Source: Octopus vulgaris
Lineage: Eukaryota
Assembly (NCBI GenBank): GCA_951406725.2
Contig: OX597822.1
Location: 43,772,001 to 43,836,000 of the forward strand
Direction of reading: 5' to 3'
DNA length: 64,000 bases
In this document: positions 12,624 through 51,775 of the stretch, in pieces
Layout: each line of letters starts with the position of its first letter
Position numbering within the stretch: the first letter of the stretch is position 1
Program-made: the position numbers and the translations under genes
The notes under the pieces: generated by a model
The model's input: the letters and a program-made list of their open reading frames with translations, nothing else
What the model was told of the DNA's origin: nothing
The model's database searches: none

Positions 12624-12831
<208 letters not shown>

Positions 12832-12886
12832 GGTCCCGGGTTAACCACAGTAAATAAGGTACTCAATACATAGCAGAGTAAAATTA

Positions 12887-12994
12887 ATTTATTATATAGA
12901 AGGAGCTTCTACAGGACTAGAACTGTTTCATTCAAAAGATTTCTCTTGAATGAAACAGTTCTAGTCCTGTAGAAGCTCCTTCTATATAATAAAT
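12887..12994. repeat. Fold-back, ~49-bp arms
   Basis: 12887-12935 pairs with 12946-12994. Lies between TA tracts, next to the family A array. Confidence 0.9.
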
Positions 12995-13172
12995 AAATAT
13001 ATATATAACGTGACGTATTTTTGCCATTTCAATATGGCTAACCCCTAAGGGTGGATGCTACTGTAGTTTTTTAGCCCCAGGGCACACTCCTCCAGCTGGC
13101 CATAGACACACTTTCTGTGTCCTGTCAGTATTTGCAAAGGGAAGACATCCTTCCCGTCTTCAACTTATGATA

Positions 13173-13217
13173 CACACGGACTCGAGTTTCGAGGTATTGA
13201 CCTCTCGTCAGCGTGTG
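13173..13217 (-). ncRNA. Type I hammerhead ribozyme, family A, inverted copy
   Basis: Exact reverse complement of the same motif. Confidence 0.9.
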
Positions 13218-13454
13218 ACAATCATAGTTGTCGCCGAGAATTAGATTTCCTTCACAAATACTTATACTTTTTCCAGCGTCCACTGTCGCTGATATTGAAA
13301 AAGTGAAATCAAACAATGATAAATATCAATGTGAGTTATATACAGTAGCGGTAACACAACGTGACGTATTTTTGCCATTTCAAAATGGCTAGACGCTGGA
13401 AAAAGTATAAGTATTTGTGAAGGAAATCTAATTCTCGGCGACAACTATGATTGT

Positions 13455-13499
13455 CACACGCTGACGAGAGGTCAATACCTCGAAACTCGAGTCCGTGTG
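13455..13499 (+). ncRNA. Type I hammerhead ribozyme, family A, copy 1
   Basis: cacacg-CTGACGA-GAGGT(caat)ACCTC-GAAAC(tcga)GTC-cgtgtg. Canonical core, 6-bp stem I extendable by tatgat/atcata, 5-bp stem II, palindromic stem III ACTCGAGT. Predicted cleavage after C13493. Confidence 0.92.
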
Positions 13500-13807
13500 T
13501 ATCATAAGTTGAAGACGGGAAGGATGACTTCCCTTTACAAATACTGATAGGACACAGAAAGTGTGTCTATGGCCAGCTGGAGGAGTGTGTCCTCCTGGGG
13601 CTAAAAACTACAGTAGCATCCACCCTTAGGGGTTAGCCATATTGAAATGGCAAAAATACGTCACGTTGTGTTACCGCTACTGTATATAACTCACATTGAT
13701 ATTTATCATTGTTTGATTTCACTTTTTCAATATCAGCGACAGTGGACGCTGGAAAAAGTATAAGTATTTGTGAAGGAAATCTAATTCTCGGCGACAACTA
13801 TGATTGT

Positions 13808-13852
13808 CACACGCTGACGAGAGGTCAATACCTCGAAACTCGAGTCCGTGTG
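13808..13852 (+). ncRNA. Type I hammerhead ribozyme, family A, copy 2
   Basis: Identical motif 353 bp downstream of copy 1. Predicted cleavage after C13846. Confidence 0.92.
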
Positions 13853-14225
13853 TATCATAAGTTGAAGACGGGAAGGATGACTTCCCTTTGCAAATACTGA
13901 CAGGACACAGAAAGTGTGTCTATGGCCAGCTGGAGGAGTGTGTCCTCCTGGGGCTAAAAACTACAGTAGCATCCACCCTTAGGGGTTAGCCATATTGAAA
14001 TGGCAAAAATACGTCACGTTGTGTTACCGCTACTGTATATAACTCACATTGATATTTATCATTGTTATATATATATATATATATATATGTATAGCTATAT
14101 ATTTATATGTGTATATGCATGTATAAATATGCGTATATATATCTGAATATATATATATATATATATATATGTATAGCTATATATTTATATGTGTATATAC
14201 ATGTATAAATATGCGTATATATATC

Positions 14226-44730: not shown

Positions 44731-44996
44731 TGTAAAGTATAGAAGCCATCTTATCATGGCTAACCACACTGGGGAGGGGGTGTTACTGTAGCTTTATAGC
44801 CCCAAGAGATCGTCGTCTCTAGCTGGCTTTAGACACAATATCAGTGCCCTTGGAGTATTTGCAAATACTCCAAGGGCACTGATATTGTGTCTAAAGCCAG
44901 CTAGAGACGACGATCTCTTGGGGCTATAAAGCTACAGTAACACCCCCTCCCCAATGTGGTTAGCCATGATAAATAAGATGGCTTCTATACTTTACA
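44731..44996. repeat. Near-perfect ~265-bp palindrome related to the family A unit
   Basis: Centred on GAGTATTTG|CAAATACTC at 44861/44862. Confidence 0.92.
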
Positions 44997-46217: not shown

Positions 46218-46275
<58 letters not shown>

Positions 46276-46316
46276 ACATATATATACATAAATGTACATA
46301 TATATATGTGTGTGTG

Positions 46317-46377
<61 letters not shown>

Positions 46378-46604
46378 ATTAATCAATATAGGGTGTCAAA
46401 AAAAATTTTGTAGAATTCTTTTGCCACCAGCGGCCTAGTAGGAAAAAATTAAAATAGTCATAGACCATTTTTAAGTTCAACATCAACAATAAAGGAACGG
46501 CCATAATAGGCCATTCACCCACTAGAAATAACAGCCAAAGCTTCAACCGCAAATAAAAGTCAATTCAGTAAACCAGGAGAAAATTTAAAAACATTTACCC
46601 TGTA

Positions 46605-46711
46605 ATTTCTTATACGATATACCGTTTCATCTGCTGATTAATGGTAAACTAACCTGATTAAATTAAATCAAGCCAATCTTCCACAGGCCCTCAGATTCAT
46701 CAGTAAGAAAT
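46605..46711 (-). ncRNA. Type I hammerhead ribozyme, family B
   Basis: Reverse complement of 48569-48675. Confidence 0.88.
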
Positions 46712-46721
46712 AGCCCAAGAC

Positions 46722-46902
46722 GTAAAAAGCACCCACTACACTCTCGGAGTGGTTGGCGTTAGGAAGGGCATCCAGCCGTAGAAACACTGCCAGACTTGAC
46801 TGGGCCTGATAAAGCCTTCTGGCTTCACAGACCCCAGTAGAACCGTCCAACCCATGCTAGCATGGAAAACGGACGCTAAACGATGATGATGATGATGATG
46901 AT
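46722..46902 (+). mobile_element. 5'-truncated retroposon 3' end with (GAT)n tail (RTE-type tail)
   Basis: Absent from sister units of the array. Contains ggttggcgttaggaagggcatccagccgtagaaa and ends in (gat)7. Confidence 0.75.
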
Positions 46903-47278
46903 GGAACAGATATTTTCACGAGGCATTTCCGACGTTGCCAAGTTTATATCTGACCTAAAATTTTCAAATCGTCGCACTCGCGCCAAATTTATCGGCAGCA
47001 AATAAATATAAGCCGTCGATTCCATTACGGAATTAACCAGAAAATTCATAATTAATCAATATAGGGTGGCAAAAAAAATTTTGTAGAATTCTTTTGCCAC
47101 CAGCGGCCTAGTAGGGAAAAAATTAAAATAGTCATAGACCATTTTTAAGTTCAACATCAACAATAAAGGAACGGCCATAATAGGCCATTCACCCACTAGA
47201 AATAACAGCCAAAGCTTCAACCGCAAATGAAAGTCAATTCAGTAAACCAGGAGAAAATTTAAAAACATTTACCCTGTA

Positions 47279-47385
47279 ATTTCTTATACGATATACCGTT
47301 TCATCTGCTGATTAATGGTAAACTAACCTGATTAAATTAAATCAAGCCAATCTTCCACAGGCCCTCAGATTCATCAGTAAGAAAT
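47279..47385 (-). ncRNA. Type I hammerhead ribozyme, family B
   Basis: Reverse complement of 48569-48675. Confidence 0.88.
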
Positions 47386-47769
47386 AGCCCAAGACGGAAC
47401 AGATATTTTCACGAGGCATTTCCGACGTTGCCAAGTTTATATCTGACCTAAAATTTTCAAATCGTCGCACTCGCGCCAAATTTATCGGCAGCAAATAAAT
47501 ATAAGCCGTCGATTCCATTACGGAATTAACCAGAAAATTCATAATTAATCAATATAGGGTGGCAAAAAAATTTTGTAGAATTCTTTTGCCACCAGCGGCC
47601 TAGTAGGAAAAAATTAAAATAGTCATAGACCATTTTTAAGTTCAACATCAACAATAAAGGAACGGCCATAATAGGCCATTCACCCACTAGAAATAACAGC
47701 CAAAGCTTCAACCGCAAATAAAAGTCAATTCAGTAAACCAGGAGAAAATATAAAAACATTTACCCTGTA

Positions 47770-47876
47770 ATTTCTTATACGATATACCGTTTCATCTGCT
47801 GATTAATGGTAAACTAACCTGATTAAATTAAATCAAGCCAATCTTCCACAGGCCCTCAGATTCATCAGTAAGAAAT
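47770..47876 (-). ncRNA. Type I hammerhead ribozyme, family B
   Basis: Reverse complement of 48569-48675, 491 bp from the previous copy. Confidence 0.88.
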
Positions 47877-48568
47877 AGCCCAAGACGGAACAGATATTTT
47901 CACGAGGCATTTCCGACGTTGCCAAGTTTATATCTGACCTAAAATTTTCAAATCGTCGCACTCGCGCCAAATTTATCGGCAGCAAATAAATATAAGCCGT
48001 CGATTCCATTACGGAATTAACCAGAAAATTCATAATTAATCAATATAGGGTGGCAAAAAAAATTTTGTAGAATTCTTTTGCCACCAGCGGCCTAGTAGGA
48101 AAAAATTAAATAGTCATAGACCATTTTTAAGTTTAACATCAACAATCAAGGAACGGCCATAATAGGTATATCGTATAAGAAATTACAGGGTAAATGTTTT
48201 TAAATTTTCTCCTGGTTTACTGAATTGACTTTTATTTGCGGTTGAAGCTTTGGCTGTTATTTCTAGTGGGTGAATGGCCTATTATGGCCGTTCCTTTATT
48301 GTTGATGTTGAACTTAAAAATGGTCTATGACTATTTTAATTTTTTCCTACTAGGCCGCTGGTGGCAAAAGAATTCTACAAAATTTTTTTTGCCACCCTAT
48401 ATTGATTAATTATGAATTTTCTGGTTAATTCCGTAATGGAATCGACGGCTTATATTTATTTGCTGCCGATAAATTTGGCGCGAGTGCGACGATTTGAAAA
48501 TTTTAGGTCAGATATAAACTTGGCAACGTCGGAAATGCCTCGTGAAAATATCTGTTCCGTCTTGGGCT

Positions 48569-48675
48569 ATTTCTTACTGATGAATCTGAGGGCCTGTGGA
48601 AGATTGGCTTGATTTAATTTAATCAGGTTAGTTTACCATTAATCAGCAGATGAAACGGTATATCGTATAAGAAAT
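48569..48675 (+). ncRNA. Type I hammerhead ribozyme, family B (long stem II)
   Basis: atttctta-CTGATGA-ATCTG(about 58-nt structured loop)CAGAT-GAAAC(ggtatatc)GTA-taagaaat. 8-bp stem I. Predicted cleavage after A48667. Confidence 0.9.
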
Positions 48676-48794
48676 TACAGGGTAAATGTTTTTAAATTTT
48701 CTCCTGGTTTACTGAATTGACTTTTATTTGCGGTTGAAGCTTTGGCTGTTATTTCTAGTGGGTGAATGGCCTATTATGGCCGTTCCTTTATTGT

Positions 48795-48843
<49 letters not shown>

Positions 48844-48894
48844 AAATATTGAATTTCTAAATCTCTCGTAGAGACATGTACGGTGGTGGGGCGA

Positions 48895-49027
48895 TAGAAT
48901 GGTTGTATACTGTCAATCTAACAAGAACGTGACAGTAGGGGGTACACCACCACTTCCTAGGGCTATACAGCGGTGGTGTACCCCCTACTGTCACGTTCTT
49001 GTTAGATTGACAGTATACAACCATTCT

Positions 49028-49028
<1 letters not shown>
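48895..49028. repeat. Fold-back, 57-bp arms with 20-bp spacer
   Basis: 48895-48951 pairs with 48972-49028. Insert is TA-flanked. Confidence 0.92.
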
Positions 49029-50203: not shown

Positions 50204-51775
50204 TCTAGTTTCAGCTCACAAGCTGTGGCCATGCTGGGGCACCGCCATTTGGTGTTGCTACATGATTTTACTTCACGAATGCTTTTTAGCAACTGCCATT
50301 TGGTGTATGAGAGAGTTCGATGCAGCTGCCCTCATCTGCACCTCCTGCCGTGAAGTTGGTTCATCTGGGACACCTGACAGGAAGAGATCCAGTCCTACTT
50401 TAAAGACATGTGCATCCACCCCATGCAGGTCCCTCAGGTTCTTGAAAAGAGGATATTGAAAAGCTGTGGGCCTCTGAAGCCCAGGCTATCACAGTATCTT
50501 GTCCTACATCTTGATGGCAAATTTGGAGTCCTTGGCACCACGCAGTGGATCCCAGTTCTGGCATTTGTGTAACTCTCGATGCCAAAGTTTGGGACAAGTC
50601 CTTCTAGGATCTTCCAGATGTATATTATGGCATATCTCTCTCGCCTACGCTGCAAGGAATAGAGTCTTAATCTCTTGAGTCTTTCCCAGTAGCTTATATG
50701 CTGCACAGAGGCTATCTTCTTCGTGTAGTTTCGTTGGATCGCCTCAAGTTCTGTCAACTTGACACTGGGTGGTGACCATAGCTGAGAGCAATAGTCAAAG
50801 TGGCTTAGGACAAGTGTCCCCCAGAGGACCATCATGGTTTCTTGGTCTCTTGTTCTAAAGGTTCTAAGAATCCATCCGGCCAGCCGCCTACATTTAATTG
50901 CCAATTTAGCAACATGTACATGAAAGGTTGCGTCATCACTCATGTAAATACCCAGGTCACGCACTGATTGCAATCCCTCCAGATCCAGTGTATTCATTGG
51001 GTATTGCATTTAGTTTTGCATGCTGATAGCATAAAGCTTGAAACTTTTCAGCATTGAACTACATGCTATTCTTTTCAGCCCACTTGTATATTTTGTCCAG
51101 ATCACATTGCATGTGCTTAGTGTCTTCAGGGTTCTGTATTGCCTGTGAAACTTTTGTATCATCTGCATAACTTGTAATCGTGGCTCTCTGCGTGGCTGAG
51201 GGCATGTCTGAAAGGGCCATTATGAACAGTAATGGTCCCAAAACAGTGCCCTGCGGAATACCGCTTACTATTTGCGTGTTAATGGAAGTGGCCCCATTGG
51301 CTACTACCACCTGACTTCTATCCTTCAGAAAGTCATGAAGCCATTCTCCCAATTTTCCAACTATGCCAAGATCACGCAGTTTGTGACATATCATTCCATG
51401 ATCGACTATATTAAAGGCATTTGCAAAGTCGAGATATATCACTTCCACATTTGAGTGGTTGAGCAGTCGTTTCAGCACCCAGTCATAGTGTTGTAGGATC
51501 TGAGTTAAGCAGCTTCTTCCTGGTCGAAAACCATGTTGGGTGTCAGGCAACAAGTCATTTTCTTCAAGGAAGGTGATTAGTTTCCTTCTGACTATTCGTT
51601 CCATGACCTTGCTGATGTGTGAGATCAGAGAGATAGGTCTGTAGTTCTTGGCCTCCGCTCTGCTACCTCCTTTATGAATAGGGCATATTTTACCTTCCTT
51701 CAGTTTTATTGGAAGTTTGCCAGTTGCAAGGAAGCTCTGAAAGAGGAACTGCAGTGGTCTTGCTAGGACTCTCTA
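50204..51775 (-). mobile_element. 5'-truncated CR1-group LINE (RT and 3' end)
   Basis: QHGFRPGRSC, YLDFANAF, SGIPQGTVLGPLLF, YADDTK in 51059-51604. C-terminus in 50434-51009. A-rich tail. Confidence 0.9.

Follow-up and report, generated by a model that had tools for sequence, protein, structure and literature searches.

Penelope-like elements (PLEs) and retrozymes are the described systems closest to the DNA studied here (statements on the literature refer to the accessible parts of the works cited). PLE insertions are recognised by an inverted, truncated copy, a tail on one side and microsatellite targets (PMC8557442, PMC3846280). In PAc, a PLE of the anole, the tail is the stretch between two internal start sites of the reverse transcriptase (RT) 3' of the hammerhead ribozyme, and the PAc protein, for which a dimer is predicted, nicks and extends both DNA strands in vitro (PMC11167929). 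The origin of the head-to-head inverted copy is unsettled, antisense self-priming having been proposed (PMC3846280), and the in vivo role of PLE and retrozyme hammerheads has been left unclear (PMC8557442, PMC11167929). Retrozymes are derived from the pseudo-long terminal repeats (pLTRs) of such elements (Li, Clavereau and Pollet 2026, bioRxiv 10.64898/2026.07.22.740005); their circular RNAs have been demonstrated in coral, mussel and axolotl, and rolling-circle insertion figures in the literature as a hypothesis (PMC7229834). Here, we describe a tandem array of 491-bp units with four hammerheads in a 64,000-nt stretch of Octopus vulgaris DNA (GCA_951406725.2, contig OX597822.1, positions 43,772,001 to 43,836,000, forward strand), called the window below. 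The array is probably a non-autonomous retrozyme without long terminal repeats (non-LTR retrozyme) that is mobilised in trans by a PLE. A preliminary description of the window, made from its letters alone, had not named this type of element; the main evidence came from other genomic copies, namely from their fixed ends and from run-off at the ribozyme cut.

The array as such was described correctly: Tandem Repeats Finder returns a period of 491, and three minus-strand copies and one plus-strand copy of the hammerhead lie where they had been placed (Table 1). Unit coordinates start with the base that follows the predicted cut, which places one full unit at window 48176-48667; cut-to-cut length is 492 nt, and homopolymer length varies between 491- and 492-nt units. 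The minus and plus arms stand head to head between (TA)n tracts and join with a 2-nt overlap, and in an ORF (open reading frame) check of the window no frame of at least 150 aa starts inside the array. This layout had been recognised, but two of its features were passed over. The outer ends (unit positions 238 and 131) coincide with fixed sites of the whole family, and a 174-nt piece interrupts the minus arm. The piece is SINE-like (SINE, short interspersed element) and shows no clear target-site duplication (TSD); it was inserted later or else arose when the reverse transcriptase switched templates. The unit is unrelated to family A, a second retrozyme in the window, as had been claimed (best match 9 nt, E 3.6). 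At gathering score Rfam gave no match in the window, a blank that is uninformative on novelty because the short hammerheads of family A were missed too.

Table 1. Features of the hammerhead array (window positions; unit positions as defined in the text)
Feature	Position	Strand	Remarks
Left (TA)n-rich target flank	46218..46374	none	
Minus arm, ~3.3 units	46375..48166	-	Outer end at unit 238 (site B, carries the 107-nt tail); inner end at unit 103
Type I hammerhead, copy 1	46605..46711	-	
SINE-like piece, 174 nt	46726..46899	+	5'-truncated, (ATG)n tail; interrupts the minus arm
Type I hammerhead, copy 2	47279..47385	-	
Type I hammerhead, copy 3	47770..47876	-	
Plus arm, ~1.3 units	48165..48798	+	Inner end at unit 482; outer end at unit 131 (site A)
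One full 492-nt unit, cut to cut	48176..48667	+	Predicted monomer or circle
Conserved tail module	48238..48413	+	Long-range helix (unit 63-183) around hairpin B (97-118), then hairpin C (185-221)
5' strand of stem I internal loop	48564..48568	+	Predicted pseudoknot partner 48591-48595
Type I hammerhead, copy 4	48569..48675	+	Core 48577-48583 and 48652-48655; cut after 48667
Extended stem II of copy 4	48584..48651	+	5-bp proximal helix (48584-88/48647-51), 7x7 internal loop (48589-95/48640-46)
Distal hairpin of stem II	48596-48639	+	19 bp, 6-nt loop
Palindromic stem III of copy 4	48655-48666	+	
Right (TA)n target flank	48799..48841	none	

The array belongs to a large family. A DNA search of the genome (2.8 Gb, 227 contigs) with the unit yielded 215 matches (1072 candidates, 39 scored), the 150 listed being 98-100% identical, and the exact junction of unit position 131 with (TA)n occurs 182 times genome-wide and 0 times in the control. 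Subfamilies range from 93% down to ~72% identity with units of ~475-490 nt; the more diverged E type forms 470-487-nt tandems. The family is dispersed, multi-copy and recently mobile and consists of tandem non-coding units with one type I hammerhead each. It lacks LTRs and, where TSDs are visible, they are longer than 4 bp, as in the definition of a retrozyme; for a primer-binding site and a polypurine tract no aimed search was made. The window array is one insertion of this young, non-autonomous family. A plain satellite grown by unequal crossover is ruled out by the dispersed loci, the fixed ends, the TSD-like repeats and the independent junctions. We also rule out a DNA transposon of the MITE type (miniature inverted-repeat transposable element) with terminal inverted repeats: the ends differ by a fixed 107 nt and the inner ends of the inverted parts vary. 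At the level of the assembly, an artefact is unlikely, given many independent junctions and ends that are conserved in diverged subfamilies. No publication describing this family or such a stem II was found in a literature search beyond whose reach lay most subscription papers and the retrozyme supplements.

Arm ends were scored in two sets of loci. Set 1, selected for full-length arms, comprised 37 loci from the unit search plus the window. L035, which duplicates L034, was left out. We disregarded short inner inserts, treated L063 as having a single arm and corrected L046 and L048 manually (1-nt overextension, small deletion). Set 2 was taken without regard to length and consisted of the first 40 listed site-A junctions not fetched earlier (7 skipped). 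L170 (chimeric) and L179 (same junction as L175) were removed, and in L149 and L153 the arms of 16-18 nt were identified by eye. L034 and L035 have both inner junction and flanks in common, as a segmental duplication or an assembly duplicate would; L175 and L179 have the same inner junction in different flanks, which might mean a copied insertion.

The outer ends are restricted to two sites. In set 1, 35 of 68 ends fall at unit positions 127-134 (site A), 32 at 231-243 (site B) and 1 elsewhere, and 30 of the 31 two-armed loci combine one end of each kind (p 9e-10 versus random pairing). In set 2, which was selected on site A, site B stands opposite in 32/32 two-armed loci, and six loci are one-armed. 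Even subfamilies diverged to ~72% identity end at the same two sites. Site A (48306) lies 13 nt 3' of hairpin B and site B (~48410-48413) ~15 nt 3' of hairpin C; both thus follow GC-rich hairpins within a conserved fold, the tail module, which is supported by conservation and G-U changes (both-sided change in 2/39 pairs). TSD-like repeats of 10, 12 and 14 nt were present in three of seven loci checked, and (TA)n flanks nearly all loci on at least one side (exception: L054). An inverted 5'-truncated copy, a tail on one end and an AT-rich or microsatellite target are the marks of PLE-mobilised DNA, and all of them are found here. The two fixed sites match the in vitro start-site result for PAc, which supports PLE-type priming. 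The earlier suggestion that one insertion mechanism acts on different RNAs is supported by the same PLE signature in this family, in its subfamilies to ~72% identity and in family A.

The similar two-arm layout that had been reported for family A was found at 13007-14066: its arms are head to head and their outer ends 46 nt apart in its unit, which is 353 nt long and has a hammerhead with a short stem II and a palindromic stem III. Other palindromes occur in the window. At 44751-44972 lies a near-perfect one with 111-nt arms that by eye resembles the tail region of family A; it is probably a truncated or run-off insertion of a relative of that family. Two small palindromic elements in (TA)n, at 48843-49028 and 12830-13000, are longer by ~50 nt at one end only, as run-off products from other families of PLEs or retrozymes should be. 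The element at 48843-49028 has an end that also flanks L050.

The inner ends of the arms pile up at the predicted hammerhead cut. Positions 1-20 hold 12 of the 68 inner ends of set 1, where 2.8 would be expected (scan p 0.002). In set 2, 29 of 70 lie at -2 to +24, an interval set after viewing set 2, where the stop rate per nucleotide is 10.4 times that elsewhere (hazard ratio, p 6e-17). The preceding 26 nt hold 3 ends, and the edge of the pile-up is at most 2 nt from the predicted cut. Of the 57 arms that reach the cut on the first pass, 28 stop there. The two arms of a locus behave alike: where both reach the cut (n=21), both stop in 11 loci, both pass in 9 and one locus is mixed (Fisher p 3e-5). 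Loci in which both stop are independent ~350-bp palindromes with differing junctions, often with short self-complementary words or templated inserts. A smaller cluster of ends falls in the stem II hairpin (unit 425-482). The pile-up is probably a genomic footprint of in vivo cleavage and of a sense-strand template. Its simplest reading is a sense RNA template, a single molecule serving both primings, and a hammerhead-made 5' end on about half of the templates. For putative self-cleavage by the hammerhead, the observations are this strong but indirect footprint and the covariation described below.

Arms that pass the cut carry information on their template. We counted variants in 75 loci, masking sites next to homopolymers and requiring coverage by three or more units. 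Among 44 non-singleton variants, 40 were fixed in every covering unit of their locus, usually on both arms, and 4 were partial; 3 of the variants were private to one locus. Divergence amounted to 0.26% within loci, 0.27% across arms and 0.74% between loci, and arms reach up to 9 units (L149). Shared singletons had no common rank between loci, a comparison of low power. Judged by these variants, the arrays appear clonal for one haplotype, which fits rolling-circle copying of one monomer.

Contigs of four out of 24 runs (X1, X4, X18, X19) fell on the unit, in three runs with a 492-nt back-joint, which we did not use as evidence because tandem DNA and a circle look alike in contigs. Their loose ends, as far as listed, gave no link from the unit to an ORF. 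In contigs of X1 and X4 on 48176-48667, some of the letters at the joint and at loose ends show A>G changes crowded together on the hammerhead strand (5 in 27 and up to 10 in 30 letters, by eye), which reach the GAAA core; otherwise these letters equal genomic subfamily copies. The clusters resemble ADAR hyper-editing of double-stranded RNA from inverted arms, a hint that presupposes our guess that the runs are RNA.

Each of the four hammerheads combines an 8-bp stem I, a CUGAUGA/GAAA/GUA core, a 5-bp stem II around 58 nt and a near-palindromic stem III, and thus has the canonical type I form (CUGANGA/GAAA/NUH core, three closing helices). Stem I, core and folded insert had all been located correctly beforehand. 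The 58 nt had been called a loop; they do fold, but really into a 7x7 internal loop plus a 19-bp hairpin. Stem II therefore measures 68 nt instead of being short with a terminal loop that docks on the stem I loop, and the putative dock in it is the internal loop. The fold of 48555-48690 has a z of -2.7. A genome pattern search for this hammerhead type gave 3725 matches, the diverged subfamilies among them, compared to 3 for the reversed control, so the hammerheads are not a product of chance.

The covariation across genomic copies that the preliminary description had proposed as a check was observed. In an alignment of 21 subfamily copies, which are related sequences, 93.7% of cells are paired (slid controls 29-43%), percentages that are not a probability. 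Both sides change in 13 of 34 ribozyme pairs: 4/5 in stem I, 4/5 in proximal stem II, 4/19 in the distal hairpin and 1/5 in stem III. In the distal hairpin, 9 further pairs change on one side only, mainly via G-U. None of the B, C and E subfamilies examined has lost the extension. When RNAalifold was applied to the alignment of 21 rows, it returned stems I and III and a portion of the distal hairpin; proximal stem II, where there are indels, was not recovered. We conclude that the 68-nt stem II is a real RNA structure. Within the core, N7 is variable in 18/75 loci versus 0-1 for the 12 other positions, which weakly fits selection, given that position 341 varies as often and that the loci share ancestry.

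The extension had also been proposed to be a tertiary or protein-binding module, and the tertiary part of this idea found some support. The structure covaries, and in the subfamilies examined the proximal internal loop can form 3-5 bp with the stem I loop, with modest covariation and some two-sided change. An invariant CC in the 5' strand of the internal loop can pair with a GG of the stem I loop. Beside it, B and E copies have a C-G pair where C copies have U-A, and the pair after that varies (U-G, C-G, U-A or G-C). Pseudoknots between the stem I and stem II loops accelerate hammerheads (PMC3088659), and stabilisation through the internal loop is, from this covariation, somewhat favoured here. 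Stem III is palindromic or nearly so in all copies compared, which is typical of dimer-active hammerheads (PMC4209133). As a circle, the unit has a minimum free energy of -133 kcal/mol in sense and -88 in antisense orientation (z -4.3, 40 shuffles).

Long stems II occur elsewhere in the genome. Further unrelated type I hammerheads with a stem II of 39-59 nt were seen at L072, L076 and L077, the last with an inverted pair. Family D (L115-L118, L101:5959-6078) consists of tandem hammerheads with a ~585-nt unit and a different, rod-like stem II of 58-69 nt; one of its copies adjoins a B-type array in the same TA tract.

A candidate for the enzyme was obtained by a GIY-YIG search, which revealed a young PLE family with many open 781-aa frames. 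Its member L189 (G000:C16:20834800-20840600) is an intact, two-ORF Neptune-like PLE with 456-bp direct pLTRs and (TA)n at both ends. It encodes a 359-aa upstream ORF and a 781-aa RT + GIY-YIG ORF with a CX4CX2C linker, the kind of linker described for Neptune/Nematis (PMC8557442). By eye, the L189 pLTR contains a hammerhead-like motif with a variant first core box. We regard this PLE as an enzyme candidate only, which has no sequence in common with the unit. The array itself is not an autonomous PLE, as no RT + GIY-YIG ORF lies in or adjoining the arrays examined. A pattern that combined the stem III of the unit with a short stem II matched once, at a rearranged copy. Elsewhere in the window, 50434-51772 on the minus strand holds broken RT-containing frames of an unrelated non-LTR retrotransposon.

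These data lead us to the following model. Arrays would be transcribed in the hammerhead sense, and the type I hammerhead would cut after GUA, as genomic run-off indirectly indicates. A PLE protein would nick a (TA)n tract on either strand, the two nicks being ~10-14 nt apart, and two cDNAs would be primed on one RNA at ~131 and ~235, each just 3' of a GC-rich hairpin. The cDNAs would then grow toward each other and be joined by microhomology or short templated inserts, resulting in the head-to-head layout. On a cut linear template both cDNAs would run off, leaving a ~350-bp mini-palindrome without a hammerhead. On a continuous template, most likely a ligated 492-nt circle, repeated rounds would produce clonal arrays of up to 9 units; we hold such a circle to be the rather more probable template. 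The ribozyme would be an ordinary loop-loop-stabilised hammerhead, in which the internal and not the terminal loop of stem II pairs with the stem I loop, while the distal hairpin would close the internal loop and may also bind protein. More tentatively, and at somewhat less than even confidence, we propose that the arrays record the whole retrozyme/PLE cycle, with a dimeric enzyme, two structurally paired start sites and a hammerhead whose state decides the outcome; the idea that a long-stem-II hammerhead with the internal loop as tertiary contact is recurrent in this genome forms part of this proposal and is equally tentative.

Several points weigh against the PLE-mobilised retrozyme and its cycle. 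Besides the choice of the -2 to +24 interval after the fact, the mixed loci L187 and L059 (the latter from set 1) break the concordance of the arms, and in L167 the arms match 2-3 nt beyond the cut. PAc inserts in vitro without its hammerhead, yields no RNA reads ending at the cut and uses its start site alike on both strands (PMC11167929). No homology to the unit was detected by BLAST and an nhmmer profile in 30 GIY-YIG loci (of 148 matches, 6136 candidates), the only hit being in L071, where 57 nt of the unit are inserted without relation to the PLE. Of the long ORFs listed for 20 subfamily and 40 validation loci, none next to the unit is of PLE type. Likewise, the first 100 of 284 E-subfamily matches contained no same-strand pair with the 3-6 kb spacing of pLTRs, the spacing being that of the 470-487-nt tandems. 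Partial variants (e.g. in L067 and L149) point to local duplication or conversion. The subfamily copies were found with patterns that require an intact core, whose conservation there is by construction. The pseudoknot has 3 bp only in three E copies and a mismatch in L142; its register, picked by maximising pairs, is shifted by one position in three C copies, and the independent changes behind it are few. Finally, the monomer fold retains stem II but mostly lacks stem I (p 0.02-0.15 as circle) and stem III (p 0.01), and therefore cleavage may need dimerisation or protein.

The same fold bears on a different origin of the read-through arrays, namely linear multimers whose internal hammerheads stayed uncut, with the same two-site priming and no circle. 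A monomer fold that disfavours the active form, slow and dimer- or protein-dependent cleavage as is common in PLE and retrozyme hammerheads, the local array growth seen in partial variants and the fact that unprocessed RNA is the main PAc substrate in vitro (PMC11167929) all speak for it. However, arms are 8-9 units long (L067, L149), unit-private variants are not inherited at a common rank between loci (at low power), and circles are known for coral, mussel and axolotl retrozymes (PMC7229834). A conserved ribozyme yielding only dead mini-insertions would moreover be costly unless the cut feeds circles. We therefore consider linear multimers possible but rather unlikely. Another possible origin of the inverted arm, put forward for Penelope (PMC3846280), is fold-back self-priming of the cDNA or an antisense template. 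With fold-back, the two arms of a locus would necessarily stop together, and it is in line with mini-palindromes that are nearly mirror-symmetric and joined at short self-complementary words in unit 1-30 and with mirrored junctions in a few read-through loci (L036, L151, L157, L175). A fold-back copy cannot exceed the first arm, but either arm can be the longer one (site A in 12/32 and site B in 20/32 two-armed set-2 loci, hand count), so fold-back is not a general rule. Most read-through loci have junction positions that bear no relation to each other, only a sense template allows run-off at the cut, and PAc extends both strands in vitro (PMC11167929); this origin of the inverted arm is improbable.

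A further reading is a hammerhead that is a passive relic, the ends at 1-24 reflecting internal transcription start, RT stalling or junctions at AT-rich palindromes. Promoters in PLE pLTRs (PMC11167929, PMC3846280), the AAATTT/TTTAAA words that abound in unit 1-30 and are used at junctions, and the second end cluster in stem II would suit this explanation. It leaves the sharp edge of the pile-up (29 versus 3 ends, at most 2 nt from the predicted cut) and the two-sided changes in stems I, II and III unaccounted for, and independent stalling would not yield 20/21 concordant loci; we judge it improbable. As for the stem II extension, it could be a neutral inverted-repeat insertion with no part in catalysis or transposition: the C-type subfamilies carry it as an almost perfect inverted repeat whose centre is AT-rich, and its four both-sided pairs of 19 include some in out-of-register rows. 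Against this stand its retention in all B, C and E subfamilies examined, the nine one-sided pairs, mainly G-U, which preserve pairing on the hammerhead strand alone, and the 39-60-nt stem II rods of unrelated hammerheads in this genome (L072, L076, L077, family D), which make neutrality unlikely.

The family is valuable mainly as a mechanistic record of a single start site for each end, a sense template common to both arms, run-off at the cut and clonal arrays. As a young family with ~200 independent insertions, it turns the questions of the hammerhead's role, the inverted copy and rolling-circle insertion into countable genomic patterns, and its insertion footprints help to explain the movement of Penelope-type elements. 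It also offers a defined in vitro substrate: a 492-nt RNA that combines two start sites with a single cut site, together with a Neptune-like candidate for the enzyme. If the cycle proposed above is true, a sense template accounts for the inverted copy and the one-sided tail of all PLE insertions, and the hammerhead gains an in vivo role: cut linear RNA would end as a dead ~350-bp mini-palindrome, while cut and religated RNA would give rise to rolling-circle arrays. Many small (TA)n palindromes would then be reinterpreted as run-off products. Short-helix descriptors would miss long-stem-II hammerheads, so similar families may be undercounted elsewhere.

In LINE-1 twin priming, both target nicks prime on one RNA, which inverts the 5' part of the insertion. 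In the octopus family, by comparison, each priming takes place internally at a fixed site of the RNA, such an outcome is the rule and not the exception, and arms can be several units long. Closer parallels exist to the animal non-LTR retrozymes (PMC7229834; bioRxiv 10.64898/2026.07.22.740005), which likewise consist of non-coding, highly self-paired tandem units of low GC with one type I hammerhead each, are dispersed in many copies with larger TSDs and have been proposed to be mobilised by PLEs via a circle. The unit has 492 nt, compared with typically 150-450 nt (PMC7229834) or 51-972 nt (bioRxiv 10.64898/2026.07.22.740005), and stem II has 68 nt instead of ~4 bp plus a loop. Head-to-head arms, fixed two-site ends, (TA)n targeting and run-off are undescribed in the accessible parts of these two works, and the words 'inverted', 'microsatellite' and 'octopus' have 0 occurrences in the main text of PMC7229834. 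Circular RNA has been demonstrated for animal retrozymes (PMC7229834), whereas the family here is known from genomic copies.

PLEs with an endonuclease (Penelope/Poseidon, Neptune) share the tail on one end, the inverted 5'-truncated copy, AT-rich or microsatellite targets, microhomology junctions and TSDs of ~10 nt (PMC8557442, PMC3846280) and, in PAc, a hammerhead upstream of two internal RT starts (Frangieh et al. 2024, PMC11167929). The octopus element differs from them in having no ORF and a tail of ~107 nt instead of 30-40 nt. It also differs from PAc in its strict assignment of one site to each end, whereas no strand difference was reported for PAc in vitro, and in a clear genomic footprint of the cut, which is not apparent in the anole RNA reads (PMC11167929). 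Regarding the ribozyme, a base-paired contact between the stem I and stem II loops, here a predicted one, is shared with the pseudoknot-stabilised hammerheads (Perreault et al. 2011, PMC3088659), except that stem II would contribute a strand of its internal loop, which the 19-bp hairpin closes. The palindromic stem/loop III is shared with the dimer-active hammerheads of newt and PLEs, and a 'long helix II' in the literature has 6-8 bp (PMC4209133). Taken together, the element has the structure that defines a non-LTR retrozyme and bears the insertion marks of a PLE, while the ribozyme architecture and the long tail appear to be new.

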